From NCBI GenBank assembly GCA_040883295.1, contig JBFLKR010000048.1, forward strand, positions 1 through 34,184: a stretch of 34,184 nucleotides of DNA, given 5' to 3'. Shown one piece after another: positions 838-26,239 of this stretch; position 1 is the first letter of the stretch; each line of letters opens with the position of its first letter. The notes beneath the pieces are model-generated. The model was given only the letters and a program-made list of their open reading frames with translations, was not told the origin of the DNA and searched no databases. Origin of the DNA: Acidimicrobiia bacterium (GTDB lineage: Bacteria; Actinomycetota; Acidimicrobiia; Spongiisociales; JAENVV01). The position numbers and the translations under genes are program-made.

Positions 838-864
838 CTACCCGTGGTTCCGCCGGTCCAAACC
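838..864 (-). promoter_or_regulatory. SigB/SigF-class promoter P1 for dps (GGTTT-N16-GGGTAGG)
   Basis: Minus strand reads GGTTT (864-860), 16-nt spacer (859-844), GGGTAG (843-838), then G. Nine nt (837-829) separate the -10 from ATG 828, implying a leaderless or near-leaderless mRNA. Confidence 0.7.
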
Positions 865-885: not shown

Positions 886-912
886 GGTTTCCGTCGCCCG
901 AACGCCGGGTAG
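886..912 (+). promoter_or_regulatory. SigB/SigF-class promoter P2 for the 938-1504 gene
   Basis: GGTTT (886-890), 16-nt spacer (891-906), GGGTAG (907-912), then G. The -10 lies 25 nt upstream of ATG 938, with GGAG at 931-934. Confidence 0.7.
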
Positions 913-1821: not shown

Positions 1822-1848
1822 CTACCCACCGAGCCGATCCGCCAAACC
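1822..1848 (-). promoter_or_regulatory. SigB/SigF-class promoter P3 for the 1575-1793 gene
   Basis: Minus strand reads GGTTT (1848-1844), 16-nt spacer (1843-1828), GGGTAG (1827-1822), then G. 28 nt to ATG 1793, including the SD. Confidence 0.7.
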
Positions 1849-2038: not shown

Positions 2039-3091
2039 TCAGTCGATCGTGTCGCGCAGGTGCGCGAGGATGCGGCGCAGGAGCCGTGACACGTGCATCT
2101 GGGAGATGCCGACCCGCTCGGCGATCTCCGACTGGGTCAGCTCGTCGACGAAGCGCAGGCGAAGGATCGTCCGCTCTCGCTCGGGCAGCCCCGCCAGCGC
2201 GGGCCCGAGGTCGCCCAGCTGCTCCACCAGCGCCAGGTCGTCGTGCTCGTCGGCGAGGGTCTCGCCGATGCCCGAGGGCGATGGCGACCCCGGTCGCGGC
2301 GCGTCGATCGATGCCGCGGTGTAGGCCGTGGTCGCCCCGATCGCCGCCACCACCTCGTCGACGTCCATGCCGACTTCCGTGGCCACCTCGGTCGGCGAGG
2401 GGGTGCGGCCGAGCCGTTGGGCGAGATCCTCGCGAGCCCGTCCGACCTCGAGGGCCCGTTCCTGGAGACCGCGGGGCACCCGCACCGACCAGGCGCGGTC
2501 GCGTAGGAGGCGCTTCATCTCGCCGGACACGGTGGCGGCGGCGAAGCGCTCGAAGCGACCGGCTTCGGGGTCGTACCGATCCAGGGCCCGGAGCACTGCG
2601 AGGACCGCCGCCTGCTCGAGGTCGGCGTCGGCGATGCCCTTGTGCCGGTAGTGGCGGGAGATGTCGATCGCCATCGGGGCGAGCCGCCGGACGACCTCGT
2701 CGCGCGCCTCGGAATCGGTGCTCACGATGGCGAGCAGCGAATCCGTCGACTGGTCGGCCAGCGCTGCCGATGCCGACCCGGGCATCCGCACGTCGAACCA
2801 GACGGAGCCAGCGTCGTGGCCCCAGCGCAACGCGAAGCGGTCGAGGACCTCGGCGGTCAGGTCATCGGGCACCTCACCTGGCTGGATCCACACCCGGTGG
2901 GCCGTCGCCACGTCCCCCACCTCCACACGAATGCCCTCGGGGCTGCCGGCCAGCACCGTGCGGCCGACGATCTCGGAGACCAGGAGGGCCGCTGCGGCGC
3001 CTCGGACGGGGTCGAGCTCCAACTCGGCGCCGAGCCAGGCCCTGGCGGCCCGGGGGGCGTCCCGGTCGGCCGCCAGCTCGAGCGCCCTCAC
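2039..3091 (-). CDS. SigB/SigF-family (group 3) sigma-70 factor with an N-terminal RsbW-like (HATPase_c_2-like) domain fused in frame
   Basis: aa ~130-350 carry regions 2-4: DLEQAAVLAVLRALDRYDPEAGRFERFAAATVSGEMKRLLRDRAWSVRVPR; LPERERTILRLRFVDELTQSEIAERVGISQMHVSRLLRR. aa 1-102 (nt 3091-2786) follow the RsbW pattern: ...PRAARAWL...LLVSEIVGRTV...IRVEV...LDRFALRWGHDAGSVWFDV. The GTG start at 3091 overlaps the upstream stop (GTGA). Confidence 0.85.
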   Translation of the reverse strand: MRALELAADRDAPRAARAWLGAELELDPVRGAAAALLVSEIVGRTVLAGSPEGIRVEVGDVATAHRVWIQPGEVPDDLTAEVLDRFALRWGHDAGSVWFDVRMPGSASAALADQSTDSLLAIVSTDSEARDEVVRRLAPMAIDISRHYRHKGIADADLEQAAVLAVLRALDRYDPEAGRFERFAAATVSGEMKRLLRDRAWSVRVPRGLQERALEVGRAREDLAQRLGRTPSPTEVATEVGMDVDEVVAAIGATTAYTAASIDAPRPGSPSPSGIGETLADEHDDLALVEQLGDLGPALAGLPERERTILRLRFVDELTQSEIAERVGISQMHVSRLLRRILAHLRDTID

Positions 3092-3411
3092 GGGCCACCG
3101 ACTCGGATGCGGAAACCACCCGGCGTCGATTCGACGCCCGCCACCGACGAGGCGATCCGCAGGACGATGTCGTCGGGCGTGGGTGGGCGCTCGCCAACGA
3201 TCTCCACCAGGTCGGCTTCGGGAACGGTGATCACCAGCCGGCCCCCGTCCTCCCGCACGAAGGCGGTGACGAGTTCGGAGACGGCGAGCCGTGCCGAGGC
3301 GATGTCATCCTCGGTTGCCTCCCGGGATCGCAGGACGCCGGAAACGAAGGCCCGGGCCACCACCACGCCATCATCGGTGGCATCGATCTCGAGTCGGGCC
3401 GGGCCGGTCAC
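3088..3411 (-). CDS. RsbW-like anti-sigma paralogue C, degenerate (N-box Asn replaced by Ala), 107 aa
   Basis: C-terminal part of ORF 3088..3708: VTGPARLEIDATDDGVVVARAFVSGVL...ARLAVSELVTAFV...RLVITV...GGFRIRV. GTG 3411-3409 overlaps the STAS stop 3410-3408 (GTGA). The Arg-rich upstream extension is not credible coding sequence. Confidence 0.6.
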   Translation of the reverse strand: MTGPARLEIDATDDGVVVARAFVSGVLRSREATEDDIASARLAVSELVTAFVREDGGRLVITVPEADLVEIVGERPPTPDDIVLRIASSVAGVESTPGGFRIRVGGP

Positions 3412-3743
3412 TCGTCGGGCAGCTCGTCCGGTTCGTCGACGACTGGGAGCCGATCCAGCACTCCGGCGACCTCCAGCACTCGACGCACCGGACCGGGACC
3501 GCACACGAGGCCGAGTGGTCGGCCGTCCTCGGCGAGGCGTCGTCGTGCCGTGAGGAGGGACCGGAGCCCACTCGAGTCCATGAACGAGACCGACCGCAGG
3601 TCGACCGCCACCGGACCTGCGTGGGCGTCGATGGCCGCGTCGAGCGCGCCGTCGAGCGACGGAGCCGAGGCGATGTCGATCTCGCCGCTCGCCGCCACGA
3701 GGTGCCACCCACGGTGGTCGGACGTCGTCAGATGGAGGAGCAT
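3408..3743 (-). CDS. STAS-domain anti-anti-sigma factor (RsbV/SpoIIAA-like)
   Basis: MLLHLTTSDHRGWHLVAASGEIDIASAPSL...VDLRSVSFMDSSGLRSLL...GLVCGPGPVRRVLEVAGV, with the conserved phosphorylatable Ser in DSSG. Start 3743 is preferred over 3764 because the intervening codons (ATA CGA TTG) are atypical for this GC3-rich sequence. Confidence 0.85.
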   Translation of the reverse strand: MLLHLTTSDHRGWHLVAASGEIDIASAPSLDGALDAAIDAHAGPVAVDLRSVSFMDSSGLRSLLTARRRLAEDGRPLGLVCGPGPVRRVLEVAGVLDRLPVVDEPDELPDE

Positions 3744-3770: not shown

Positions 3771-4115
3771 ATGCCAGGCCCGATCCGTCTCACGGTGCCG
3801 GCCGACCCCCGGTGGCTCGGCGTCATCGACCTGGTCGTCGGCGCCGCCCCCCGATTCGTCTACGACGAGGCGGGTGTCCTCGACGACCTCGCCATCGCGG
3901 TGGGCGAGGTGGCGGCCGAGGTGGGCGCCACGGCCGGTGTCGCGGAACTCGAGGTGACCGTGGACGACGACCGGGTGGAGATCGCCGGTCGCGGCACGGA
4001 TGTGGTCTGGGAGCCGGGACCGGTGTGGGAGCGGCTCGTGCCGGGCCTGGCCGAGGTGGGGTGGGACGTCGAACCCTCGGGGATCAGGGTCTGGCTGGCG
4101 CCACTGCCAGCTTGA
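3771..4115 (+). CDS. RsbW-like paralogue B, degenerate (N-box Asn replaced by Glu), 114 aa
   Basis: Part of ORF 3291..4115 from ATG 3771: MPGPIRLTVPADPRWLGVIDLVVGAAPRFV...LAIAVGEVAAEVG...ELEVTVDDDRVEI...GIRVWL. Third codon positions are strongly G/C, as in real genes here. Confidence 0.55.
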   Translation: MPGPIRLTVPADPRWLGVIDLVVGAAPRFVYDEAGVLDDLAIAVGEVAAEVGATAGVAELEVTVDDDRVEIAGRGTDVVWEPGPVWERLVPGLAEVGWDVEPSGIRVWLAPLPA

Positions 4116-4488
4116 ACCAGGCCCGGACGTGGCCGGTCGCGGCCTCGAGGCCCCACGCATCGGCGAGGCGATCGACCAGCAGCAGGCCGAAGCCGCCGGG
4201 ATGGTCGTCCTTGCTCGGGCCCCTGACGGGGGGGCCCGTCGCGACGACCTCGACCCGGCACGTGCCGTCCTCGCTGACGATCGCGAGCAGCAGGTCCTCG
4301 CCACCTTCGAGTCCACGGTGGCGGAGGACGTTGGTCACGATCTCCGACGTCAGGATCTCGGCGACCTCGGTGATCGACCCGTCCCCGAGATGCCCGCGCA
4401 CGGCCCGACGGGCGGCAGCGGGGGCCCGATCGTCCGCCGGCAGCGTGATGGCCTCGGTGGCCGATTCCGTGGTGCCCCGGTCGGTCAT
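4084..4488 (-). CDS. RsbW/SpoIIAB-type anti-sigma factor (HATPase_c_2), paralogue A
   Basis: 134 aa. N-box intact (SEIVTNVLRH). G2-like GGFGLLLVDRLADAWG. The G1 position reads VVATGPP (Asp missing). ATG 4488 overlaps the stop of the upstream gene (ATGA). Confidence 0.8.
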   Translation of the reverse strand: MTDRGTTESATEAITLPADDRAPAAARRAVRGHLGDGSITEVAEILTSEIVTNVLRHRGLEGGEDLLLAIVSEDGTCRVEVVATGPPVRGPSKDDHPGGFGLLLVDRLADAWGLEAATGHVRAWFKLAVAPARP

Positions 4489-4988
4489 GGGCGGTCACCG
4501 TACCCGGAGTCACCGTCGTCCTCGGTGCGGAAGGAGAACACGGGCAGCCAGAACCAGGCCCAGGTCGTGAAGCCGAGTACGGCCGCGGCGACCGCCGCGG
4601 CCGGGATCACGCCGAACAGCAGCGAGGTGACGAACCAGGCGACGGCGCCGATGGCGACGGCGGCCGCCACCGTTCCGGCCAGGGCCAGGTGCACCGCGAT
4701 TCGCACGTGGCCCAGGTGCTTGCGAGGTATCCCCGTCAGCGGTGCCCGGACCCGTTGGTGCACCGAGGGGGCGATGAGCAGCACCGAGGCGGCGCCGGCG
4801 GCGGCGAACGCGACGTAGTACGACGCCCGCTGGTCGGCCGTGGCCGTCGTGAACGGACTCGACAACGGGACCGTGAGGAGGAAGGCGAAGAGGACCATCA
4901 CCCCGGGGATCGTCGTTCGGAGCCCCTCGAGCAGGGCCCGGAATCGCTGGTCGATCCCGTCGTCGGTGACGTCGTCGGAGGATCGCAT
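4485..4988 (-). CDS. DUF6328-like integral membrane protein
   Basis: 167 aa. RALLEGLRTTIPGVMVLFAFLLTVPL plus further hydrophobic helices resembles the actinobacterial DUF6328 family (from memory, not searched). ATG 4988 lies 9 nt downstream of a GGGTAGG box. Confidence 0.55.
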   Translation of the reverse strand: MRSSDDVTDDGIDQRFRALLEGLRTTIPGVMVLFAFLLTVPLSSPFTTATADQRASYYVAFAAAGAASVLLIAPSVHQRVRAPLTGIPRKHLGHVRIAVHLALAGTVAAAVAIGAVAWFVTSLLFGVIPAAAVAAAVLGFTTWAWFWLPVFSFRTEDDGDSGYGDRP

Positions 4989-4997
4989 GACGAGCGC

Positions 4998-5024
4998 CTA
5001 CCCGGGCTCGCTGCTCGCCAAACC
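4998..5024 (-). promoter_or_regulatory. SigB/SigF-class promoter P4 for the DUF6328-rsbW operon
   Basis: Minus strand reads GGTTT (5024-5020), 16-nt spacer (5019-5004), GGGTAG (5003-4998), then G. Nine nt (4997-4989) to ATG 4988, the same geometry as P1. Confidence 0.7.
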
Positions 5025-5036
5025 GGTCCGGGGCCG

Positions 5037-5063
5037 GGTTTCGTGGGCCGCGTCTGCGGGTAG
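5037..5063 (+). promoter_or_regulatory. SigB/SigF-class promoter P5 for the ferredoxin gene
   Basis: GGTTT (5037-5041), 16-nt spacer (5042-5057), GGGTAG (5058-5063), then G. 29 nt to ATG 5093. Confidence 0.7.
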
Positions 5064-5092
5064 GTGTGGGGCCACCTATCGGGGACAACCAC

Positions 5093-5419
5093 ATGAGTGA
5101 CGACACCACCACGCTGATGGTCTGGATCGACCAGGACCTCTGCACCGGCGACGGGATCTGCGAGGAGATCGCCCCCGACGTCTTCGTCGGTCGCGACGAC
5201 GGCCTCTGGGTCGTCAAGGAGGAGGCCGAGCACTTCGGCGAGACGATCGTCTTCGACGGTCGCGACGGCGATGGTCACGGTCCCGAAGGCGCCCGCGGCG
5301 TCGCCCGGGTGCCCGACGAGCTCATCGACGACACCGTCGAGGCCGCCCAGGAGTGCCCCGGCGAGTGCATCATGATCGAGCCGTACGACGCACAGCTCGT
5401 CGACGAACGCGCCGCCTGA
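5093..5419 (+). CDS. Single-cluster ferredoxin (CxxDxxC...CP type)
   Basis: MSDDTTTLMVWIDQDLCTGDGICEEIAPDVF...AAQECPGECIMIE. Start set at ATG 5093 because GTG 5066 lies only 2 nt after the P5 -10 box. Confidence 0.8.
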   Translation: MSDDTTTLMVWIDQDLCTGDGICEEIAPDVFVGRDDGLWVVKEEAEHFGETIVFDGRDGDGHGPEGARGVARVPDELIDDTVEAAQECPGECIMIEPYDAQLVDERAA

Positions 5420-9486: not shown

Positions 9487-9871
9487 GGCCAGGATCGCCC
9501 GGAACACGGTCCGCAGGGCCGCGTTCGTGGGTCCGGTCGTCGTCCTCGCCTCCTGGCTCCTCGCCGGGACCGACGGAGCCATCGCCGCCCTGGTGGGCGT
9601 CGTCGCCGTGGTGGGCAACTTCCTGCTGGCCGGCTGGATCCTGTCCGTGGCGGCCCGCATCTCCCCCGGTGCCTATCATGCCGCCGCGCTACTGGGCTTC
9701 ATCCTCCGATTCGCCCTCCTGGCAGCGACCGTGTTCGGGGTCGCCGCCTTCGTGGAGCTCGATCGGGTGACGTTCGCAATCGCAACGGTGGTCACGTACC
9801 TCGTCCTCCTGTCCTGGGAGACGGTGGCCGTGGCCCGCGGAAGGGAAAGGGAACTCGAGTGGACCACATGA
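9476..9871 (+). CDS. atpI: ATP synthase protein I (AtpI)-like membrane protein
   Basis: 131-aa hydrophobic protein with about four TM helices, in the canonical position directly before atpB. GTG start overlapping the previous gene. Confidence 0.6.
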   Translation: MDVEARIARNTVRRAAFVGPVVVLASWLLAGTDGAIAALVGVVAVVGNFLLAGWILSVAARISPGAYHAAALLGFILRFALLAATVFGVAAFVELDRVTFAIATVVTYLVLLSWETVAVARGRERELEWTT

Positions 9872-10689
9872 TCCTGGCGGTCGAGGAGTGCGACGCTGCC
9901 AACGTGGCGATGTGCACGCCGTCCGAGGTGGGGGTGCTCTTCGAGTTTCCGCCGCTCTTCCCCGACAGCGAGCTGTGGTCGTGGGTCACCCGCACCGAGG
10001 TGCTCATCCTCCTCGCCGCCATCATCCCGGTCGTGATGGTCTTCGTCGCCCTGCGCAAGCCGAAGCTGGTGCCCGGCAAGTTCCAGCTCTTCATCGAGTC
10101 GGTCTACAACTCGATCGATCAGGGCATCTCCAAGGACATCATCGGTCCCGAGGGCTCCCGCTACACCCCCTACCTGATCTCGCTGTTCGCCTTCATCTTC
10201 TTCGGGAACATCTTCGAGGTCACGCCCTTCGTCAACTTCCCGGTCACGTCCCGGATCGCCCTCCCCGCGTTCCTGGCACTCCTGACCTGGTTCATCTTCA
10301 TCATCGCCGGCATCTCCAAGCAGGGCCTGACCTACTTCGGCCACCTCATCTGGCCCCCCGGGATCCCGATCGCCCTCCGTCCGCTGGTGGGCGTCATCGA
10401 GTTCGTCTCGGTGCTGTTCGTGCGGCCGTTCTCGCTGGCGGTGCGGCTCTTCGCCAACCTCGTCGCCGGCCACACGATGCTGGCGCTGCTCCTCAGCACG
10501 GCCGGGATCTTCATCTGGGGGTTCATCCAGGGCGACCTCGGCTTCGGGAAGGCCCTCACGGGTGGGGCGTGGTTCCTGTTGGCCCTCGGGATCTACGTGT
10601 TCGAGATCCTCGTCTCGTACCTCCAGGCCTACATCTTCACGCTCCTGTCCGCCGTCTACATCGAGAGCTCGCTCCACCCCGAGCACTGA
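9859..10689 (+). CDS. atpB: F0F1 ATP synthase subunit a
   Basis: Contains the essential-Arg motif SLAVRLFANLVAGH. Start is GTG 9859 or ATG 9868. Confidence 0.95.
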   Translation: MDHMILAVEECDAANVAMCTPSEVGVLFEFPPLFPDSELWSWVTRTEVLILLAAIIPVVMVFVALRKPKLVPGKFQLFIESVYNSIDQGISKDIIGPEGSRYTPYLISLFAFIFFGNIFEVTPFVNFPVTSRIALPAFLALLTWFIFIIAGISKQGLTYFGHLIWPPGIPIALRPLVGVIEFVSVLFVRPFSLAVRLFANLVAGHTMLALLLSTAGIFIWGFIQGDLGFGKALTGGAWFLLALGIYVFEILVSYLQAYIFTLLSAVYIESSLHPEH

Positions 10690-10950
<261 letters not shown>

Positions 10951-10962
10951 GAGACGCCCGTC

Positions 10963-11505
10963 ATGACGGACGTGTTCCTGTTGGCCGCCGAGGAGGGCGG
11001 GAGCGAGGGCGGGCTGTCCTTCCTGCTCCCGGCCACATCCGAGCTCGTGATGGGCATCTTCGCCTTCCTGATCGTCTTCGCGGTCATGTGGCGCTTCGCG
11101 GTGCCCGGCATGCGACGGCTCATGGACGAGCGGCAGGCCGCCATCAGCGGCCAGATCGAGGCCGCCGAGGCCGCCCGCACCGAGGCCGACCGGCTCCGGG
11201 CGGAGTACGAGCAGCAGCTCGCCGGGGCCAAGACGGAGGCGAACGGTGTCATCGAGGAGGCCCGCGCCTCCGCCGAGACGGTCCGCGCCGACATCGTCGC
11301 CAGGGCCGAGGAGGAGGCCGCCCGGATCCGGGAGAAGGCCCAGGCCGACGCCGATGCCGAGAAGGCCCGGGTCCTCGCCGAAGCGAGGAGCGAGGTCGCC
11401 GGCCTGTCGGTCAGCCTCGCCGAGAAGGTCGTGGGTGGCTCCCTCGACGACGAGCGCCAGCGGGCCCTCGTCGAGCAGTACCTGTCCCAGCTCGAGTCGG
11501 AGTAG
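10963..11505 (+). CDS. atpF: F0F1 ATP synthase subunit b
   Basis: One N-terminal TM helix followed by a long Ala/Glu/Arg-rich helix. Position between atpE and atpH. Confidence 0.9.
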   Translation: MTDVFLLAAEEGGSEGGLSFLLPATSELVMGIFAFLIVFAVMWRFAVPGMRRLMDERQAAISGQIEAAEAARTEADRLRAEYEQQLAGAKTEANGVIEEARASAETVRADIVARAEEEAARIREKAQADADAEKARVLAEARSEVAGLSVSLAEKVVGGSLDDERQRALVEQYLSQLESE

Positions 11506-11508
11506 TCG

Positions 11509-12048
11509 ATGGCGGACGATCGCATCGCCGGCTACGCCGCGGGCATCTTCGAGATCGCCCGCGGTGAGGGCGTGGCCGCCCGTGTCGAGTCGGAGCTCTT
11601 CGCGGTCGCCCGCGCCTTCGAGTCGAATCCCGAGCTCCGTTCGACACTGTCGGATCCCCGCCTCCCGCTCGAACGCAAGCACGGCATCATCGACGACCTG
11701 CTCGAGACGCGCGCCGACGACCTGACGGTTGCCCTGGTGTCGTTCCTCGCCGACATCGGCCGCGTCGGCGACCTCGGGGAGATCTCGGCGGCGCTCTCGG
11801 ACCATGCGGCCGCCACCACCAACCGGGAGACGGCCGTCGTGCGCAGTGCCATCCCCCTCGACGAGGCCACCGTCGAGCGACTCGCCCGGGCCCTCGGCAA
11901 GGCCACCGGCAAGGTGGTCGACGTCCGGGTGGTGGTCGACCCGTCCGTCATGGGCGGCATCGTCGCCACCGTCGGCGACACGGTCATCGACGGCACCGTC
12001 CGCAGCAAGCTCGAGCAGATGCGCTCGGTCCTCACCACCAGGAGTTGA
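11509..12048 (+). CDS. atpH: F0F1 ATP synthase subunit delta (OSCP)
   Basis: 179 aa. C-terminal [28 protein letters not shown] is typical of delta/OSCP. Confidence 0.9.
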
Positions 12049-12050
12049 AC

Positions 12051-13583
12051 ATGGCAGACCTCACGATCACCACCGAGGAGATCACCGGGGCCCTCCGGTC
12101 GAACCTGGAGGGATGGAAGCCCGAGCTGTCGCGCGAGACCGTGGGCTACGTCACCTCGCTCGCCGACGGCGTCGCCCGCGTCCGTGGACTCCCCGATGTC
12201 ATGGCCTCCGAGCTGTTGGAGTTCCCCGGGGGGCTCCGGGGCGTCACCCTCAACATCGACGAGGACGACCTCGGCGTGGTCCTCATGGGCGAGTTCGAGC
12301 ACGTCGAGGAGGGTGACCCCGTCCGCCAGACCGGTGAGGTCCTCTCCGTGCCGGTCGGCGATGCGATGCTGGGTCGGGTCATCGACCCACTCGGCAACCC
12401 GATCGACGGCAAGGGTCCGATCAACACCACCGAGCGGCGGCTCCTCGAGACCCAGGCCCCGTCGGTGGTCGAGCGCCAGCCGGTCGGTCAGCCGCTCCAG
12501 ACCGGCATCAAGGCGATCGACGGGATGACGCCCATCGGTCGCGGCCAGCGCCAGCTCATCATCGGGGACCGTCAGACCGGCAAGACGGCGATCCTCGTCG
12601 ACACGATCATCAACCAGCGCAACCAGTGGGGCACCGACGACCAGGTCAAGTGCGTCTACGTCGCCATCGGCCAGAAGTCGTCGACCGTCGCCGAGGTGGT
12701 CGCGGCGCTCGAAGAGGCCGGCGCCATGGAGTACACCGTGGTGGTCAACGCCCCGGCGTCGGCGCCCGCCGCCCTGCAGATGTACGCCCCGTACGCCGGA
12801 TCGGCCATCGGCCAGCACTGGATGTACCAGGGGCAGGACGCCCTCGTGATCTTCGACGACCTGTCGAAGCAGGCGGTCGCCTACCGGGAGATCTCGCTGC
12901 TGCTGCGTCGCCCCCCCGGCCGTGAGGCCTACCCGGGCGACGTGTTCTACCTGCACAGTCGATTGCTCGAGCGCTGCGCCAAGCTCAGCGACGAGCTGGG
13001 AGGGGGCTCGCTCACCGGCCTGCCGGTCATCGAGACGAAGGCCAACGACGTCTCGGCGTTCATCCCGACCAACGTCATCTCGATCACCGACGGCCAGTGC
13101 TTCCTCGAGACCGACCTCTTCTACCAGGGCATCCGACCGGCCATGAACGCCGGCATCTCGGTGTCCCGAGTGGGCGGTGCCGCCCAGATCAAGGCGATGA
13201 AGAGTGTCGCCGGGTCGTTGCGACTCAACCTCGCCCAGTACCGGGAGCTCGCGGCGTTCGCCGAGTTCGGCTCGGAGCTCGACGCCACCTCGCTCGCCCA
13301 GCTCGAGCGTGGCCAGCGGGTCGTCGAGGTACTCAAGCAGCCGCAGTACCAGCCGATGCCCGTCGAGGAGCAGGTCATCTCGATCTTCGCCGTCACCGAG
13401 GGCCACATGGACGAGGTGCCGGTCGAGTCCATCCGCGCCTTCGAGCGGGGACTGCTCGAGCACGTTCGCACCCGCCATGGGCGGCTCCTCGACCACATCC
13501 GCAACACCGGCACGCTGCCCGAGGGCGACGACCTCGTCGACGCCATCACGGAGTTCAAGTCCGGCTTCCTCGCCGAGGCCTGA
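12051..13583 (+). CDS. atpA: F0F1 ATP synthase subunit alpha
   Basis: Walker [10 protein letters not shown]. Alpha-type sequence throughout. ATG 12051 with AGGAG 6 nt upstream is preferred over the TTG at 12045 used in the ORF track. Confidence 0.97.
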
Positions 13584-13586
13584 TCC

Positions 13587-15903
<2,317 letters not shown>

Positions 15904-15904
<1 letters not shown>

Positions 15905-16245
15905 TGGCCAGGAGCTTTGCCGTCGACGTCGTCTCCCCCGAGGAGAGCCTCTGGTCGGGGGAGGCCACGTTCCTCGTGGCCCGCACACCCGATGGTGAGA
16001 TCGGCATCCTGGCCGACCACGAGCCGGTCATGGCGGCCCTGGCCACCGGGGCGGTCACCGTCGACGGCGCCGACGGTGGACGAACGACGATCGCCGTCAA
16101 CGGTGGCTTCCTGCAGGTGCTCGACAACACGGTGACGCTGCTCACCGACCGCGCCGAGGTCGTCGAGGGCGATGCGGAGGCGGCCCGGGCCACCGCCGCC
16201 GAACTGGCGGCGCAGGCCGACGACAACCCGGTCGTCGAGCTCTAG
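15904..16245 (+). CDS. atpC: F0F1 ATP synthase subunit epsilon
   Basis: 113 aa. The GTG start overlaps the atpD stop by 1 nt. Last gene of the operon. Confidence 0.9.
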
Positions 16246-16679
16246 ACAGTCCCTCCCGCCGACAGGCGGGTGGCGAACGCCTCCACCTCGCGGGGGAGGC
16301 CGTTGCGGACGCTCTTCTCGACCGGGCCGAACGCCATCTTCACGAGCATCGAGCGGGGCAGCAGCTCTGCTCCGACGGCCAGCTTCGTGCGCGTTTCGCC
16401 GTTCGATTCGAGGCGCACCGCCAGCCGGGCTCCGAGATCCTTCGAGTCGAGCCGCAGGGTCATCGCCTCGGACGGGCGTCGCCCGACCACCGAGGCCTCG
16501 CCATCGAACCGCATCCCCGCCACCTCGATGTGGAAGTCGAACGCCTCGAGCAGGTCCCCGTCGTGGCGGACGTCGTGGACGCCCTGGATGCCGGCGATCC
16601 CCTCCCAGGTGGAGGCGGTCTGCAGGGCGGCCCAGACGTCGTCCATCGGGGCGTCGACGGTGGTGGTGTGGGCGATCAC
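16242..16679 (-). CDS. SRPBCC-superfamily protein (polyketide cyclase/CoxG-like fold)
   Basis: 145 aa. MIAHTTTVDAPMDDVWAALQTASTWEGI opening is typical of SRPBCC proteins. GTGA overlap with the upstream peptidase gene. Its stop overlaps the atpC stop (CTAG). Confidence 0.65.
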   Translation of the reverse strand: MIAHTTTVDAPMDDVWAALQTASTWEGIAGIQGVHDVRHDGDLLEAFDFHIEVAGMRFDGEASVVGRRPSEAMTLRLDSKDLGARLAVRLESNGETRTKLAVGAELLPRSMLVKMAFGPVEKSVRNGLPREVEAFATRLSAGGTV

Positions 16680-18706
16680 GCCGGGACGCTACCGAGGTGA
16701 TGGGCGAGGAAGCCGTACGCGTCGGCGGCCTCGTCGATGAGCTTGCTGGTCGGCTTGCCCAGCCCGTGGCCGGCCCGGGTCTCGACCCGGACCAGGAGCG
16801 GCCGTTCGGACGTGCCTCCGGCGGCGTGCTGCAGCGTCGCGGCGAACTTCAGCGAGTGCATCGGCACGACCCGGTCGTCGGTCTCGGCGGTGAGGACCAG
16901 GGTCGGCGGGTACTCGACGCCGGAGCGGACGTTGTGGAGCGGTGAGTAGGCGATGAGCCAGGCGAATGCCTCGGGGTCGGCCGCGTCTCCGTACTCGACG
17001 GTCCAGTACCGGCCCGCGGTGAAGCGCTGGTAGCGCAGCATGTCGGTGACCGGGACCTGGGCGACCACCGCCCCGAACAGCTCGGGGCGCTGGAGCATCA
17101 CGGCGGTCACCAGCAGGCCGCCGTTGGACCCGCCCCGGATGCCGAGGCGGTCCGGCGTGGTGGTCCCGTCGGCGACCAGTGCCTCGCCACAGGCGATGAA
17201 GTCGTCGAAGACCTGCTGCTTCGCACCCAACATGCCTTGTTCGTGCCAGGTCTCCCCGTGCTCGGAGCCGCCCCGGAGGTTGGCCGATGCCACCACGCCG
17301 CCTGCCTCCAGCCACGCCAGCCGGGCGGGGTTGAACATCGGGGTGACGTTGATGTTGAACCCGCCGTAACCGTAGAGCTCGGTGGGGGCCGGGAGCTCGG
17401 TGCCCCGATGCCGCAGCACGAACATCCCGACCTCGGCCCCGTCGGACGAGGTGGCGTGGCGCCGCTCCACGACGACGTCGTCGGGCGGCAGCGGCGGGGC
17501 GGCCCCGGCGAAGACCTCGGTCGTCCCGTCCTCCCAGCGGAGCGCGGTGGGCGGGTGGAGGAACGACTGGTAGCCGAGGTGGATGACCGGGTCGTCGAGG
17601 CGGCCGGTGACCTCGGCGACGGTGCCGGGACCGGGGAGCGGGATCGTCCCCAGCTCCGAGCCGTCGAGGCCGTACCGACGGACCACGTGGGCGGCGTCCG
17701 CCAGCGTGATGGTCACGATCCCCCCGGCGCGGGCGACGGCGACCTCCATGGGGTCGCCCTCGGGCACGACCGTGCGCCGGGCCGTGAGGTCGTCGAAGGG
17801 GATGTGGACGATCCGGTGGTTGGGGGCGTCGAGATCGGTCTCGATCAACAGCCCGTCGTCCCCGACGGCGACGAAGCCGTACACCGCCTCGCCGGGATCG
17901 GCGACCCGCACGAAGTCGTCCGGTCCGTCGGCGCCCAGCGGGGCGACGAGGAGGCCGTTGCGGATGGAGGTGCCCGACCACTCGGTGAGCACGAGCCACG
18001 CACCATCGTGGGACACCGTGGCGTCGTAGCCGAGCTCGGGCTCCTCGGGGTTGGCGAACACCAGGTCGTCATCGGCCTGGTCGGCGCCGAGGCGATGGAA
18101 GTGCACCGACATGTCGGTGAACAGGCCCACGTCGCCCTCGGGCACCTCGGGGAAGCGGCTGTAGAAGAAGCCGTCGCCGTGCCAGGCGAACGAGGTGAAG
18201 CGGAGGTGGCGCAACTCGTCGTCGAGGTGCTCGCCGGTGTCGGTTCGCACGACGTGCGCCACCTGCCGATCGGACCCGGCCTCCGACGTGGTGTAGACCA
18301 CGTGGGCGCCATCGGGGGACAGCGACCACACCGGCACCGCCACGGCACCGTCGTCGGACATCGTGTTGGGATCGAGCAGGACCCGAGGGTCGCCCCGGTC
18401 GACCGAGACCATGAGCACGGGCTGGTCGGCGAGGCCGTCGTTGTGTGACCAGACGGCCACTCCGTTGCGGGCGATGGGGGCGCCGGTGCGGGGGACGTCC
18501 CACAACTCGGCGATGCGCCGCCGCAGGCGGCCCACCTCCGGCAGCGAGGCGAGATGGGGCAGCGTGATCGCGTTCTGGTCGGCCACGAAGGCCTGCGTCT
18601 CGGGGTCGTGGGGATCCTCCAGCCAGCGGTAGGGGTCGGCGACCGCGGTCCCGTGGTGGTCGTCGACCACGTCGGCGCGCCGGGCCGGGGGGTACGTGAA
18701 GGGCAT
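16676..18706 (-). CDS. Prolyl oligopeptidase (S9A serine peptidase)
   Basis: From MPFTYPPARRADVVDDHHGTAVADPYRWLED (ATG 18706) within ORF 16676..19078. Catalytic triad contexts GGSNGGLL, TAETDDRV and RAGHG. 676 aa. Confidence 0.9.
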   Translation of the reverse strand: MPFTYPPARRADVVDDHHGTAVADPYRWLEDPHDPETQAFVADQNAITLPHLASLPEVGRLRRRIAELWDVPRTGAPIARNGVAVWSHNDGLADQPVLMVSVDRGDPRVLLDPNTMSDDGAVAVPVWSLSPDGAHVVYTTSEAGSDRQVAHVVRTDTGEHLDDELRHLRFTSFAWHGDGFFYSRFPEVPEGDVGLFTDMSVHFHRLGADQADDDLVFANPEEPELGYDATVSHDGAWLVLTEWSGTSIRNGLLVAPLGADGPDDFVRVADPGEAVYGFVAVGDDGLLIETDLDAPNHRIVHIPFDDLTARRTVVPEGDPMEVAVARAGGIVTITLADAAHVVRRYGLDGSELGTIPLPGPGTVAEVTGRLDDPVIHLGYQSFLHPPTALRWEDGTTEVFAGAAPPLPPDDVVVERRHATSSDGAEVGMFVLRHRGTELPAPTELYGYGGFNINVTPMFNPARLAWLEAGGVVASANLRGGSEHGETWHEQGMLGAKQQVFDDFIACGEALVADGTTTPDRLGIRGGSNGGLLVTAVMLQRPELFGAVVAQVPVTDMLRYQRFTAGRYWTVEYGDAADPEAFAWLIAYSPLHNVRSGVEYPPTLVLTAETDDRVVPMHSLKFAATLQHAAGGTSERPLLVRVETRAGHGLGKPTSKLIDEAADAYGFLAHHLGSVPA

Positions 18707-18723
18707 GGGAGCCACGCTACCGG

Positions 18724-19698
18724 TCAGGCCGGCTCGGACGCGAAGAGGTCGAGGCCGAGCGTTCGCGAGAGGTGGGCGGCCACGAGTTGGCCCCGCACCG
18801 AGTTGCCGGCCGCGTCCACCGGCGGGGAGAAGGTCCCGAGCCCGCCCTTGCCGGGCGACACGGTCACGATCCCACCCCCGATGCCGCTCTTGCCGGGAAG
18901 TCCGACGGCGTGGAGCCAGTCTCCGGAGGTCTCGTACAGGCCGGCCGTGGTCATGGCCGCGAGCACGTGGCGGCAGGTGACGGCCGAGACCACCCGCTCG
19001 CCGGTGACCGGGTTGACCCCGCCATCGGCGAGGGTGGCGCCCATCGTGGCCAGGTCGACGGTGGTGACCGAGACGCAACTCTGGCGGGTGTAGCGATCGA
19101 GCGCCTCGTCGGGATCGGCGGCGATCGCCCCGACACCCACCAGTCGCCTGGTCAACTCCTGGTTGCGGTGGTTGGTTGCCGAGGCCGAGGCGTAGACCTC
19201 CTCGTCCACCACGAGGGTGCGCCCGGCGAAGGCGCCGAGCGCGGCGAGCGTCGTCGACCAGCGCTCGTCGGCGTCGGCCCCCGGCACCAGGGCCGTCGTC
19301 ACGATCGCCCCGGGGTTCACCATCGGGTTGGTCCGACCGGCCGGGTCGCGGCCGATGGCCGCCGGGTCGTTGAAGGACAGACCGGTGGCGTTGGCGCCGA
19401 CCCGGGCCACGGCCTCATCGGGTCCGAGGGCGTCGCAGACGAGCGCGAACACGAACGGCTTGGCGACGCTCATGATCGGGAAGACGACGCTGGCGTCGCC
19501 GGCGAGGTGGGTCGCCCCGTTCACGCCGACGACGGCGATGCCGAACGAGTTCGGGTCGGCCCGCTCGAGGGCGGGGTAGACGTCGGAGGGACGACCGTCG
19601 TCGACCGCTCGGAACCGCTCGTGGGCCTCGGCGACCAGGGTCCGGGTGCGATCGGGACCGGGGAGGTGCCCGGTGGAGACGAAACGAACCGTCGTCAT
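18724..19698 (-). CDS. glsA: Glutaminase A
   Basis: 324 aa. Ser-x-x-Lys at MSVAKPF, PGKSGIGGGI and the overall beta-lactamase-like glutaminase pattern. Confidence 0.9.
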   Translation of the reverse strand: MTTVRFVSTGHLPGPDRTRTLVAEAHERFRAVDDGRPSDVYPALERADPNSFGIAVVGVNGATHLAGDASVVFPIMSVAKPFVFALVCDALGPDEAVARVGANATGLSFNDPAAIGRDPAGRTNPMVNPGAIVTTALVPGADADERWSTTLAALGAFAGRTLVVDEEVYASASATNHRNQELTRRLVGVGAIAADPDEALDRYTRQSCVSVTTVDLATMGATLADGGVNPVTGERVVSAVTCRHVLAAMTTAGLYETSGDWLHAVGLPGKSGIGGGIVTVSPGKGGLGTFSPPVDAAGNSVRGQLVAAHLSRTLGLDLFASEPA

Positions 19699-22159: not shown

Positions 22160-23755
22160 GTGCTCCTCGCTCGCGGCGTCCGCATCGAGGTCGGTCCCCG
22201 AGTCCTGCTCGCCGAGGCCGACCTGACCCTCCAACCCGGCGACAAGGTCGGGTTGGTGGGTCGCAATGGCGCGGGCAAGACGACCCTCATGCGGGTGCTG
22301 GCCGGCGAGGCCCGGCCGGCGGCCGGGACCATCACCCGGTCGGGGCGGATGGGCTACTTCTCCCAGGAGGCGCACCTCCCCCTCGATGGTCGGCCGCTGA
22401 CGGGCCTCGACCGGATCCTCGAGGCTCGCGGCATCGGGCGACTCCTCGTCCGGATGGAGGAGACCCGGCGTGCCGCCGAAACGGCGACCGGCGACGACCT
22501 CGATCGGCTCATCCGTCGTCAGGCCCGCCTCCAGGACGAACTCGACACCCAGGGCGGGTACGCCGCCGAGGCGGAGGCCAAGCGAATCGCGGCCAACGTC
22601 GGCATCGCCAACGACGAACTCGGCCAACAGGTGGCCTCCATGTCGGGTGGCCAACGGCGGCGGGTCGAGCTCGCCCGGATCCTCTTCGCCGAGACCGACT
22701 TCCTGCTCCTCGACGAGCCCACCAACCACCTCGACCTCGACGCCAAGGCGTGGCTCATGGACTGGATCGCCGCCTACAAGGGGGCCGTGCTGGTGGTCTC
22801 CCACGACCTGCCGCTGCTCGACGAGGCGATCACCTCGGTGGCCAGCCTCGAGCACCAGCGCCTCGAGTCCTATCGCGGGAACTACTCCCACTTCCTCGCC
22901 GAACGGGAGCGTCGTCGCGAGCAGCGGGAGAAGGAGCGCCGCCACCAGGACCGCAAGATCGCCCAGCTGGAGGCGACGGCCACCCGCTTCAAGGGCAAGA
23001 CCGAGAAGATGGCCCGCAAGGCCAAGACCCTCGAGACCCGCGCCGAGCGCATCAAGCGGGACCTCGTCGAGGTGGAGCGCCGGGGCAAGCAGGTGGCCGT
23101 CCGGTTCCCGTCGGCGCCGCCCGCCAACCGCACCCCGCTCGAAGCGAACGGCCTCGGCAAGGCGTTCGGCGACAACGTGGTGTTCCTCGACGTCGACGTC
23201 GTGCTCGACCGCGGCGAGACCCTGCTGCTCATGGGCCTCAACGGCGCCGGCAAGACGACGCTCCTGCGGATCCTCGCGGGCGTCGAGACCCAGGACCTCG
23301 GGGTCGTGTCCATGGGCGACAAGACGGTGCTCGGCTACTACGCCCAGGAACACGAGCAGATCCACCCCGGCACCACCGTGTTCGACCACGTCCGGGCGGT
23401 CAGCGACCTGCCCGACCCCGAGATCCGGTCGCTGCTCGGCCACTTCCTGCTCGCCGACAAGGTCGACCAGGACGCGGGGACGCTCTCCGGTGGGGAGAAG
23501 ACCAAGTTGGCGCTGGCCCAGGTCGTCCTCGCCCGCCCCAACGTGCTGCTGTTGGACGAGCCCACCAACAACCTCGACCCCCAGGCCAAGGAGGCGCTGC
23601 TGGAGGCCCTCGAGGCGTTCGGGGGGACGATCGTCCTGGTCAGCCACGACACCGACTTCGTCGCCGACCTGGTCCCCGACCGGGCGCTCATGATGCCCGA
23701 CGGCGAGGTCCGCTGGTTCGACGAGGAGTTGCTGGAGTTGGTGGCACTCGCGTGA
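22160..23755 (+). CDS. ABC-F family ATPase (two NBDs, no TMD; translation factor / possible ribosome-protection type)
   Basis: NBD1: GRNGAGKTT, MSGGQRRRVELARIL, LLLDEPTNHLD. Arg/Lys/Glu-rich linker. NBD2: GLNGAGKTT, LSGGEKTKLALAQVV, LLLDEPTNNLD. Confidence 0.9.
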   Translation: MLLARGVRIEVGPRVLLAEADLTLQPGDKVGLVGRNGAGKTTLMRVLAGEARPAAGTITRSGRMGYFSQEAHLPLDGRPLTGLDRILEARGIGRLLVRMEETRRAAETATGDDLDRLIRRQARLQDELDTQGGYAAEAEAKRIAANVGIANDELGQQVASMSGGQRRRVELARILFAETDFLLLDEPTNHLDLDAKAWLMDWIAAYKGAVLVVSHDLPLLDEAITSVASLEHQRLESYRGNYSHFLAERERRREQREKERRHQDRKIAQLEATATRFKGKTEKMARKAKTLETRAERIKRDLVEVERRGKQVAVRFPSAPPANRTPLEANGLGKAFGDNVVFLDVDVVLDRGETLLLMGLNGAGKTTLLRILAGVETQDLGVVSMGDKTVLGYYAQEHEQIHPGTTVFDHVRAVSDLPDPEIRSLLGHFLLADKVDQDAGTLSGGEKTKLALAQVVLARPNVLLLDEPTNNLDPQAKEALLEALEAFGGTIVLVSHDTDFVADLVPDRALMMPDGEVRWFDEELLELVALA

Positions 23756-24358: not shown

Positions 24359-24424
24359 CGGTGAGGCGCCGACGGAGACGCGCGTCGGACCGTGACAAAT
24401 GCCTGCCGCCGGTACGATCCGTCG

Positions 24425-26239
24425 GTGAACCTCCGCAACCTGGCCCTCGTCGCCCACGTCGATCACGGCAAGACCACCCTCGTCGACGCCATGCTCGCCC
24501 GGGCCGGTGCCTTCGCCGCCCACGAGCAGCCGGTCGAGCGGGTGCTCGACTCCTCGGACCAGGAGCGGGAGCGGGGCATCACCATCCTCGCCAAGGCCGC
24601 CTCGGTCCGCTGGGGCGACGTCCGCATCAACCTCGTCGACACGCCGGGCCACGCCGACTTCGGCGGCGAGGTCGAACGGGCCCTCGCCCTCGTCGACGGG
24701 GTCCTCCTCCTCGTCGACGCCGCCGAGGGTCCCCTGCCCCAGACCCGCTACGTGCTGTCGAAGGCCCTCGCCCGCCGCCTCCCCGCCGTCGTCGTCCTGA
24801 ACAAGGTGGATCGCCCCGACGCCCGCCCCGACGCCGTCCTCGACGAGGTGTACCAACTGTTCATCGACCTCGACGCCGAGGACCACGACATCGAATTCCC
24901 CGTCGTCTCCACCATCGCCCGCGAGGGCGCCGCCGTCCTCGGGGTGGGCGTGCCGGGGCCCGGGGACGACCTCGCCCCGCTCCTCGACACGATCGTCGAC
25001 CACGTCCCGCCCCCGGGCGGCGACCCGGCCGCCCCGCTGCAGGCGCTGGTCACCAACCTGGATGCCTCGGACTACCTCGGCCGCCTCGCCATCGGCCGGG
25101 TGGTGGAGGGCACCCTGCGGCGGGGTGAGACGGTCGCCCTCTGCCACGCCGACCCCGACGAGCCGCCGTTGCGTCGACGACTCACCCAGCTCCTGGGCTT
25201 CGACGGCCTGTCCCGGGTGGAGGTGGAGGAGCGGGTTGCCGGCGACCTGTTCGTGGTGGCCGGGTTCCCGGAGGTCGAGATCGGCGACACCCTCGCCGAC
25301 GCCGGCGACCCGGTGCCGCTGCCCCGACTGGTGGTCGACGAACCGGTGCTGCGCATGACCCTCGGGGTGAACACCTCGCCGCTGGCCGGGGCCGATGGGA
25401 CGTTCCTGACCTCCAACCAGATCAAGGAGCGCCTGGCCCGTGAGGTGCTCGGCAACGTCTCGATCCGCGTGGGCCCCACCGCCAACCCGGAGGCCACCGA
25501 GGTCGCCGGGCGGGGCGAACTGCAGCTGGCCGTGCTGGTCGAGTCGATGCGTCGCGAAGGGTTCGAGTTGCAGGTCAGCCGGCCCGAGGTGATCCTCCGC
25601 GAAGTCGATGGCCGGCCCCACGAGCCCGTGGAGCGGGCGGTGGTCGACGTCCCCGACGAGCACGTCGGCACCGTCATCTCGACGGTCGCCGAGCGGAAGG
25701 GATCGGTGGCCGACCTGCGACCCGGCGACGCCGGCCGCACGCTCGTCACCATCACGGCCCCCGCTCGCGGGCTGCTCGGCTTCCGGTCGTTCCTCATGAC
25801 CGCCACCCGGGGCACGGCCCTCGTCCACCAGCACCACGACGGGTGGATGCCCTGGGTCGGGGAGCTTCCCCACCGCGCCGGCGGAGCGATCATCGCCGAT
25901 CGGTCGGGGGTGACCACCACCCACGCCCTCGACAACCTCCAAAAACGCGGGGAGCTGTTCGTCGGGGCGGGCGAGCCGGTCTACGAGGGGATGGTCATCG
26001 GCGAGCACAGCCGGGGCGACGAGCTCCCGGCCAACCCCACGAAGACCAAGCAGCTCACCAAGATGCGCACGGCCAACACCGACGACGGGGTGAAGCTGCG
26101 GCCTCCGCGTCGTCTCACCCTCGAGACGGCGATCGAGTGGATCGGCGACGACGAGCTCGTCGAGGTGACGCCCACCTCCATCCGGGTCCGCAAGCGCCAC
26201 CTCACCGAGTCGGAGCGCAAGCTCGCCGCCAAGCGCTGA
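24425..26239 (+). CDS. typA: Translational GTPase TypA/BipA
   Basis: [37 protein letters not shown]. The 604-aa length fits BipA. GTG 24425 is preferred (TACGAT -10-like box 6 nt upstream). The ORF track starts at GTG 24392. Confidence 0.93.

Follow-up and report, generated by a model that had tools for sequence, protein, structure and literature searches.

Can a sigma factor carry its own anti-sigma factor in the same chain, and how would such a module act once it has lost the means to work as a kinase? The question is raised by a 350-amino-acid (aa) open reading frame (ORF) on the minus strand of contig JBFLKR010000048.1 from an uncultured Acidimicrobiia bacterium, a stretch of 34,184 nucleotides (nt) that we analysed at its full length and refer to as the window. 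The initial annotation, made from the sequence alone, had proposed an anti-sigma domain of the RsbW type fused in frame to a SigB/F-type sigma factor, and the family profile, a profile search of the Protein Data Bank (PDB), and AlphaFold models compared by Foldseek all agree with that reading. Residues 1 to 105 are an RsbW/SpoIIAB/UsfX-type anti-sigma domain tethered to a complete SigB/F-type group-3 sigma factor. This structural interpretation is supported by several lines of evidence, and the mechanism that we propose for the protein, in which the tethered domain would inhibit the sigma factor and a STAS protein would release it, is plausible. The fusion is made up of the following parts.

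2039 to 3091, minus strand: fusion gene, 350 aa, an RsbW-like pseudokinase domain and then a SigB/F-type sigma factor (ORF list and sequence).
2777 to 3091, minus strand: N-terminal domain (N-domain), aa 1 to 105, a degenerate GHKL/HATPase_c_2 domain of the RsbW/SpoIIAB/UsfX type (profiles, AlphaFold, Foldseek).
2714 to 2776, minus strand: junction, aa 106 to 126, a short tether and then the sigma N-terminal helix (alignment to 1l0o_C; dip in the predicted local distance difference test score, pLDDT).
2489 to 2692, minus strand: sigma region 2, aa 134 to 201 (PF04542, Sigma70_r2; E 2.2e-10, 40.6 bits, above cutoff).
2297 to 2458, minus strand: sigma region 3, aa 212 to 265 (PF04539; E 1.4e-13, 51.2 bits, above cutoff).
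2054 to 2200, minus strand: sigma region 4, aa 298 to 346 (PF04545; E 4.3e-19, 68.2 bits, above cutoff).

The motifs on which the first reading had rested (RAWL, LLVSEIVGRTV, IRVEV and LDRFALRWGHDAGSVWFDV) are all found in the ORF. Direct comparisons of the N-domain gave little. Residues 1 to 102 have no direct match in Pfam or NCBIfam, and the whole protein also scores under the gathering threshold of PF13581. A word-indexed search with the N-domain alone returned just one near-identical partial protein, pairwise BLASTP of the domain against two neighbouring RsbW-like ORFs was insignificant (E 0.07 to 0.17), and a profile of five N-domain sequences found no match among the PDB sequences. An exhaustive phmmer search with aa 1 to 115 against 1.84 billion representatives gave six matches; four are 361- to 375-aa proteins with the same two-part layout, and the other two, 126 and 168 aa long, stand alone and retain an N-box reading SELVTN. 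With a profile of five fused N-domains, 757 proteins were recovered at E <= 1e-3 (best 1e-15), and among the 120 matches listed nearly all are 120- to 140-aa PF13581 proteins named "anti-sigma regulatory factor (Ser/Thr protein kinase)". A 51-sequence profile matched SpoIIAB (E 1.3e-8), the RsbW-type domain of Rv1364c (2.4e-7) and Bacillus subtilis RsbW (1.5e-5) in the PDB.

Structure prediction gave the same answer. The AlphaFold2 model of aa 1 to 108, built with 147 aligned sequences, reached a pLDDT of 95.2 and a predicted template modelling score (pTM) of 0.88, and its secondary structure elements follow the order b1-a1-a2-b2-b3-a3-b4-b5. Thus the N-terminal part taken alone has a GHKL fold, as had been proposed for it, with no direct Pfam match. 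The top 14 PDB matches of this model in Foldseek are all anti-sigma kinases (template modelling score, TM, 0.69 to 0.75; probability 1.00), led by 8jzt_B/D/F (SigF with its anti-sigma), 8ih8_C (UsfX with RsfB), 6m36/6m37 (RsbW), and 1tid/1th8/1thn (SpoIIAB). The catalytic domains of histidine kinases (CA domains) rank lower down.

For the second half of the protein, the annotation had claimed a complete group-3 sigma factor, and regions 2, 3, and 4 all score above their Pfam thresholds; region 4 also matches the sigma-4 domain of Mycobacterium tuberculosis SigF (8jzt_A, E 2.1e-17). The best NCBIfam model for the sigma half is NF005514, SigF (214.4 bits, E 1.5e-63). TIGR02980, SigB/F/G, is the second-best family (aa 127 to 349, E 7.8e-63), and its score of 212.2 bits lies slightly under the curated cutoff of 234.35; the superfamily model TIGR02937 was passed with 108 against a cutoff of 42.9. 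The best PDB sequence matches are Staphylococcus aureus sigma B (8x6g_H, 1.5e-31) and sigma F from its complex with SpoIIAB (1l0o_C, 1.6e-29). Since the alignment to sigma F begins already at aa 111, a complete sigma factor begins at about this residue, with some 105 residues before it.

The connection between the two halves is short. The tether spans approximately aa 103 to 110, at most about 8 residues, and carries a conserved R102-x-P-G105 boundary; R102 and G105 are 95 to 96% conserved in the fusions, while the same positions in stand-alone relatives are 35% Asp and 26% Gly. The full-length AlphaFold model is compact (pLDDT 86.8, pTM 0.63). Near the junction its confidence dips (pLDDT 76) over aa 101 to 110 and no further, and the long low-confidence stretch lies at aa 269 to 291, between regions 3 and 4. 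In Foldseek, the sigma part of this model was closest in TM-score, among the 50 matches listed, to the anti-sigma-bound WhiG 6pfv_G (TM 0.51), from which it deviates by 12.6 Å root-mean-square deviation (rmsd), compared with approximately 27 Å for sigma factors bound to RNA polymerase (RNAP). Sigma factors swamped the matches of the full-length model, and nothing was learned from them about the N-domain.

The ORF is a single gene. It was described as running without a stop between its two parts, from a GTG start coupled to the preceding gene, and both features are seen in the DNA. The start codon, GTG 3091-3089, overlaps the TGA stop of the preceding ORF (3090-3088) as GTGA, and it is the earliest start codon available 3' of the upstream in-frame stop. 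Codon-position GC content is unbroken from 3091 to 2039 (third position 0.83 to 1.00, second position 0.37 to 0.77), and the frame of the upstream gene stops exactly at 3091 in the same plot. An identical 350-aa protein with the same neighbours occurs on four independent contigs from separate sequencing runs, and a partial protein with 99% identity is known from an Acidimicrobiia metagenome-assembled genome (MAG). One part of the earlier description found no support, namely that internal initiation at Met103 could additionally yield a free sigma factor. The codon (ATG 2785-2783) is present, but position 103 is not conserved: its commonest residues in 120 relatives are A, T, L, G, R, and S, and the 85%-identical protein P0132 has Leu. 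As a feature of the family, a free-sigma isoform made from Met103 was rejected, this residue not being conserved even in the close subclade.

Does the fused domain still bind and use ATP? The N-box Asn coordinates Mg-ATP and the Asp of the G1 box binds adenine. The N-box of the window protein reads SEIVGRTVLA and departs from the ExxxNAxxH pattern, with Arg44 in place of Asn and Ala48 in place of His. The positions of the ATP site compare as follows.

N-box Asn: Arg44 in the window protein; Asn in 93% of stand-alone relatives and in 50% of fusions.
N-box His: Ala48 in the window protein; His in 93% of stand-alone relatives and in 51% of fusions.
G1 Asp (DxGxG): Pro71 in the window protein; Asp in 81% of stand-alone relatives; His in 50% of fusions and Asp in 4/120.
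G2 glycines (GxG): Asp77 and Thr79 in the window protein; Gly in 93 to 98% of stand-alone relatives and in approximately 50% of fusions.
Lid (segment between b3 and a3): 8 residues in the window protein; median 20 in stand-alone relatives and 12.5 to 14 in fusions.

Because the N-box Asn, the G1 Asp, the G2 glycines and most of the ATP lid are gone, the N-domain cannot be a canonical kinase. The annotation had reached "probably not a kinase" from the N-box; with G1, G2 and a normal lid lost as well, the claim now stands on firmer ground. Across 120 fusions, two are fully canonical (P0228 and P0243), 58 keep the N-box Asn and His and the GxG with His replacing the G1 Asp, and the remaining 60, the window protein among them, have lost N-box, G1, and G2 altogether. 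The His variant at G1 is itself conserved and may bind something other than ATP. In a co-variation analysis of the 120 sequences (mutual information with average product correction; effective number of sequences 59), the ATP-site positions form the strongest set in the protein (z up to 9.3), which argues that the nucleotide pocket decays as a unit. From one family member to another, positions 44, 48, 71, 77, and 79 are retained together or lost together.

Other residues of the domain have been kept or gained. Arg17 in helix 1 is invariant in fusions and stand-alone relatives alike, and it aligns with R20 of SpoIIAB, which a passage of PMC4166321, citing Masuda et al. (2004), reports as essential for the interaction with SpoIIAA. 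A second group of residues is conserved in the fusions only: the turn between a1 and a2 contributes D27, P28, R30, A32, and E33, and the domain boundary contributes R102, P104, and G105. Of these, D27, P28, R30, A32, E33, R102, and G105 are conserved at 63 to 96% in fusions and not in stand-alone relatives, as would be expected of a new intramolecular interface. A catalytic constraint lost together with a new constraint gained is the pattern expected of a domain turned into an intramolecular binding module. As a member of the RsbW/SpoIIAB family, the fused domain has the fold and the Arg, lacks the catalytic residues, and scores under the Pfam threshold.

The fusion belongs to a sizeable family. 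A full-length profile recovered at least 120 clusters, 118 of them 323 to 442 aa in length and most covering 89 to 100% of the query. Where a source is named, the members are all proteins from Acidimicrobiia MAGs, annotated as "sigma-B factor" or "sigma-70 family". Sigma regions 2 to 4 are found in 119/119 aligned members; a direct Pfam match to HATPase_c_2 (PF13581) at E <= 1e-3 occurs in 38/119 (best 7.6e-13) and one to PF02518 in 16/119. Domain databases would already display this architecture for the third of the members that Pfam recognises. Selection was estimated against relatives with 85 to 92% protein identity as the ratio of nonsynonymous to synonymous substitution rates (dN/dS), which is 0.34 to 0.43 for the N-domain, 0.08 to 0.11 for the sigma part, and 0.30 to 0.58 for the neighbouring switch proteins. 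The N-domain is therefore under purifying selection, with a dN/dS similar to that of the other switch proteins at the locus.

GTDB species representatives were also scanned with the full-length alignment. Among the best 80 loci, the N-domain and the sigma factor share an ORF only in four MAGs, of which two are Acidimicrobiaceae, one is Acidimicrobiia, and one is labelled "uncultured bacterium". The approximately 65 loci from Mycobacterium, Rhodococcus, Streptomyces, and other Actinomycetes among these 80 all lack the N-domain, their sigma factors matching only from about aa 127. A comparison of fused and split genes in relatives had been suggested at the outset, and it found both forms, fused in at least 118 clusters and split in some Acidimicrobiales. 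In the split locus L066 (positions 2217-3690; loci are cited here by L numbers), a STAS gene, a gene for a degenerate 129-aa PF13581 protein and a gene for a 248-aa sigma factor are three separate genes with overlapping stop and start codons; L063 also has the three as separate genes. We found no published description of an RsbW-sigma fusion in the full-text literature searched, the coverage of which is incomplete.

The genes around the fusion indicate the kind of circuit in which it sits. The following neighbours matter for the argument.

4485 to 4988, minus strand: DUF6328 gene, the first in the minus-strand run to the sigma gene (PF19853, E 3.8e-21).
4084 to 4488, minus strand: stand-alone 134-aa HATPase_c_2 protein (PF13581, 29.9 bits against a cutoff of 27.4; hidden Markov model of the N-domain, 69 bits).
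3771 to 4115, plus strand: conserved 114-aa ORF (called independently in L001, L006, L007, and L009; dN/dS 0.32).
3408 to 3743, minus strand: STAS anti-sigma antagonist, 111 aa, with the phosphorylatable-Ser motif FMDSSG (PF13466, E 2.7e-16; TIGR00377, E 1.1e-17).
3088 to 3411, minus strand: 107-aa truncated RsbW remnant (sequence, independent gene calls, weak RsbW/PF13581 matches).

On the minus strand, the order is DUF6328, the 134-aa HATPase_c_2 protein, STAS, the 107-aa ORF, and the fusion. The 107-aa remnant is coupled at both ends by GTGA, its GTG start to the STAS stop and its TGA stop to the fusion start, so that STAS, remnant and fusion form a translationally coupled triplet in the canonical rsbV-rsbW-sigB order with the fusion last. 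The start of the STAS gene is ambiguous among assemblies, either ATG 3743 (111 aa) or ATG 3764 (118 aa), and with the latter its gap to the divergent 114-aa ORF is 6 nt.

The remnant keeps the AR motif and RLAVSELV without the N-box Asn. In hhalign it matches the fused N-domain family (91.6%, E 8e-7) over b1-a1-a2, the N-terminal half of RsbW-type proteins, and the operon-position RsbW of L066 (92%, E 6e-7). Its dN/dS is 0.43 to 0.58, and its counterpart in L003 passes the Pfam threshold. The middle gene of L066 resembles this remnant more than it does the fused domain, so the fused domain may derive from a different paralogue. The 134-aa protein, the closest paralogue of the fused domain, keeps an N-box (SEIVTNVLRH) and a G2 box (GGFGL), with Ala replacing the G1 Asp (EVVATGPP). 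Between the 134-aa and STAS genes lies the 114-aa ORF, which is on the opposite strand and shares 32 nt with the 3' end of the 134-aa gene. It has no Pfam match and a weak hhalign match to the remnant (66%, E 5.7e-5), and it may be a very divergent RsbW-like protein.

Eleven fusion loci were examined, of which L006 is identical to the window. A STAS gene lies within approximately 3 kb of the fusion in 11/11 and is upstream on the same strand in 8. It is adjacent to the fusion in four (L005, L011, L023, L026), and in another four (L001, L003, L006, L009) a small RsbW-like gene alone stands between the two. In L012, L023, and L026, a neighbouring HATPase_c_2 paralogue has complete N, G1, and G2 boxes, and genes for PP2C phosphatases adjoin the fusion in L003, L004, and L005.

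Which promoters would the sigma factor read? Promoters of the SigF/SigB type follow the pattern GTTT-N15-17-GGGTA. The motif GGTTT-N16-GGGTA occurs in the window in five exact copies, where 0.06 would be expected. No copy is farther than 3 kb from the sigma gene, the other 29 kb having none, and the five are arranged as two divergent pairs and one copy directly downstream of sigma.

4999 to 5024, minus strand: motif that precedes DUF6328 and the 134-aa HATPase_c_2 gene, and perhaps the entire run to sigma.
5037 to 5062, plus strand: motif upstream of a ferredoxin gene (5066-5419).
1823 to 1848, minus strand: motif immediately downstream of sigma, in front of a 72-aa gene (1575-1793).
839 to 864, minus strand: motif upstream of a Dps/ferritin-like gene (256-828).
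886 to 911, plus strand: motif upstream of a plus-strand gene ending at 1504.

All five positions are kept in the orthologous locus L001, which is 60% identical, and the motif directly after the fusion gene is also present in L001, L002, L003, L005, L006, L008, L009, and L012. A shorter form, GTTT-N16-GGGTA, lies between the fusion end and a HATPase_c_2 paralogue in L003 (2876-2900), L005 (7077-7101), and L012 (4098-4122). Together with the complete boxes of the neighbouring paralogue in L012, L023, and L026, this would fit sigma-dependent expression of a feedback kinase. The same motif pattern is found upstream of the sigF-type gene in mycobacterial loci, where the autoregulated usfX-sigF promoter is known to lie, and the motif agrees with the published SigF consensus. 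The five motifs may be read by the sigma factor of the fusion.

The window is chromosomal DNA with a GC content of 70.5%. The region 9859-16000 and beyond seems to hold ordinary chromosomal housekeeping genes, including an F1Fo ATP synthase operon; genes for a prolyl oligopeptidase (16676-19078), an ABC-F ATPase (22160-23755), and BipA/TypA (24392-26239) are also present. Rfam, tRNA, and sigma-70 promoter scans of the window gave no match, and a terminator scan gave one weak plus-strand match at 1960-1972.

How might the fused protein work? The most likely mechanism, to which we give somewhat better than even confidence, is that the tethered anti-sigma domain would act in cis and independently of ATP, with release by the STAS protein. 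The fused domain would be a built-in anti-sigma module that needs no ATP. In the resting state it would hold the sigma domains closed and unable to bind RNAP, possibly as a heterodimer with the co-translated 107-aa remnant, an attractive pairing because RsbW-type anti-sigmas act as dimers on one sigma. The unphosphorylated STAS protein would bind the Arg17 face and displace the sigma domains, and the freed sigma factor would then read the GGTTT-N16-GGGTA promoters on either side of the locus, those of Dps, ferredoxin, DUF6328 with HATPase_c_2, and small proteins. Since phosphorylation of the antagonist is beyond the fused domain, any reset would depend on separate RsbW paralogues, which would parallel the binder/kinase split between RsbW1 and RsbW2 of Mycobacterium smegmatis.

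Several observations weigh against this mechanism. AlphaFold often predicts free sigma factors as compact, so the compact full-length model is weak evidence of a closed state. The very short tether to sigma region 1.2 may keep the domain from reaching sigma-3 and sigma-4, unlike free RsbW-type proteins. Co-variation between the N-domain and the sigma part in the 120 sequences is scattered and forms no coherent patch. Of the three SpoIIAB residues cited for antagonist binding, two lack a clear counterpart in the fusion: Gly43 stands where SpoIIAB has T49, and the region of E104 was lost together with the lid. STAS binding may therefore be weaker or proceed in another way. None of the RsbW-like modules in the 34-kb window combines N, G1, and G2 boxes into a complete ATP site. 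A PP2C phosphatase of the SpoIIE/RsbU type was not found in the window by tblastn with three Acidimicrobiia SpoIIE-domain proteins, although such a gene could lie elsewhere in the genome. Finally, a different SigB/F paralogue encoded in the genome could be the one that reads the promoters.

A more specific version of the tethered-inhibitor mechanism is a single-chain partner switch, which we offer tentatively and would not expect to hold in full. Here the pseudokinase domain and the 107-aa remnant would rebuild an asymmetric anti-sigma dimer from one and a half genes; the sigma factor would be born inhibited at a fixed stoichiometry, and STAS alone would release it, without ATP or kinase feedback.

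Among the rivals, the one that survives best, unlikely as we judge it, makes the N-domain a protective decoy or adaptor. It would heterodimerise with RsbW-type proteins in trans (the 107-aa and 134-aa proteins or others) or recruit STAS, and so shield its own sigma or bring regulators to it. RsbW-type proteins are dimers, three further RsbW-like modules are present at the locus, the remnant shares exactly the b1-a1-a2 part with the fused domain, and over so short a tether sigma-3 and sigma-4 are hard to reach. There is also a precedent: M. smegmatis RsbW3, itself homologous to RsbW, works as an antagonist through its binding to RsbW1 (PMC7693655). However, the fusion loci L002 and L004 have no other RsbW-like gene nearby, and the residues conserved in fusions only suggest a partner within the same chain and not one that is shared.

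Some sigma factors are made as pro-sigma factors, among them Bacillus pro-sigma E and pro-sigma K and Streptomyces BldN, and the fusion might be another: the N-domain would be cut off at the R-x-P-G boundary, or bypassed by way of Met103, to give a free sigma factor and a free RsbW-like protein. We consider this improbable. The R102-x-P104-G105 boundary is indeed conserved in fusions only, and near the junction low model confidence is confined to the residues around it, but the same conservation is equally explained by a structural cap, no protease gene is linked to the fusion in the contexts examined, and Met103 is not conserved.

A further reading, similarly improbable, compares the N-domain to sigma region 1.1. 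An acidic N-domain would stay on the holoenzyme, block DNA binding by free sigma, and gate the RNAP channel or tune promoter choice, all independently of partner switching. It does occupy the place of region 1.1, immediately before region 1.2, and its net charge is approximately -6 (17 Asp/Glu against 11 Arg in aa 1 to 105). Nevertheless, its homology is to anti-sigma factors and not to region 1.1, the fusion is consistently linked to STAS genes, and the antagonist-binding Arg is retained.

That an rsbW-like gene and a sigma gene were merged by a sequencing or assembly error, as a single indel could do to the separate genes with overlapping stop and start codons of a related genome, is in effect refuted by the identical ORF on four independent contigs, by at least 118 clusters with the same architecture, by the continuous codon-position GC signal, and by purifying selection on the N-domain; the sequencing error that the initial annotation had named as a possible refutation was accordingly rejected.

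Comparison with known systems places the protein more closely. The fused domain descends from, and would work most like, the stand-alone RsbW/SpoIIAB/UsfX proteins, with which it shares the fold, homology at the profile level, and the invariant Arg (R20 of SpoIIAB). In operons of the rsbV-rsbW-sigB type these proteins occupy the same position, downstream of the STAS gene and adjoining a SigB/F-type sigma gene. The fused domain differs in being covalently joined to its sigma factor and, with its N-box Asn, its G1 and G2 boxes, and the greater part of its lid missing, it cannot phosphorylate the antagonist. The stoichiometry differs too, fixed at 1:1 in cis here, while RsbW/SpoIIAB/UsfX bind one sigma in trans as an anti-sigma dimer.

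Among published proteins, sigma-SsdA of Actinoplanes comes nearest as an analogue, with the converse module placed at the opposite terminus. Sigma-SsdA/SipA of Actinoplanes missouriensis is a SigB/F/G-type sigma factor with a C-terminal STAS domain (Nat Commun 2023, PMC10733313). Both are actinobacterial SigB/F/G-type sigma factors that carry a partner-switching module in one polypeptide; sigma-SsdA is regulated by RsbW-like and STAS domains, as the fusion would be. In sigma-SsdA, however, the STAS domain is fused at the C-terminus and the RsbW-like domain is separate, whereas here an RsbW-like domain is fused at the N-terminus and STAS is separate.

Rv1364c joins sensor, phosphatase, kinase, and antagonist domains in one protein without a sigma factor. 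This M. tuberculosis protein (PDB 3ke6) is likewise a fusion of SigF-pathway partner-switching modules, and its RsbW-type domain is one of those matched by the N-domain profile; the fusion described here differs by including the sigma factor itself. ECF41/42 are ECF sigma factors with regulatory C-terminal extensions. Like them, Pseudomonas putida IutY, a hybrid ECF sigma/anti-sigma protein (PMC5411451), is a single chain in which a sigma factor is controlled in cis by a regulatory or anti-sigma module of its own. These proteins differ in being group-4 sigma factors with unrelated C-terminal folds (a membrane-spanning anti-sigma domain or a SnoaL-like extension) and have neither a GHKL domain nor a STAS partner switch. 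In M. smegmatis, RsbW1 binds SigF and is not a kinase, RsbW2 phosphorylates the antagonist, and RsbW3 acts as an antagonist (PMC7693655). The window resembles this arrangement in having several RsbW-like modules, none with a complete ATP site, but RsbW1, RsbW2, and RsbW3 are all free-standing and none is fused to SigF.

What does the fusion mean for the biology of these bacteria? Partner switching relies on the reversible, concentration-dependent binding of free proteins and on ATP-driven phosphorylation of the antagonist. Fusing a kinase-dead anti-sigma domain to its sigma factor changes the effective concentration of the inhibitor relative to sigma; it also changes the stoichiometry, to 1:1 in cis from a dimer on one sigma, and removes the feedback phosphorylation by the anti-sigma factor itself. 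The protein offers a natural system for asking how much of the RsbW fold can be removed while it still serves as a binding module. With two canonical members, approximately half with a partly intact ATP site and half degenerate, the family could show a stepwise change from enzyme to regulatory domain after fusion. The single-chain switch, if true, would be a distinct way for Acidimicrobiia to wire their general stress response. The analysis defines a sizeable family that has been annotated to date merely as "sigma-B factor" or "sigma-70 family", and it points to a likely general-stress regulon (Dps, ferredoxin, DUF6328, and small proteins) in a widespread and almost uncultured class of actinobacteria.

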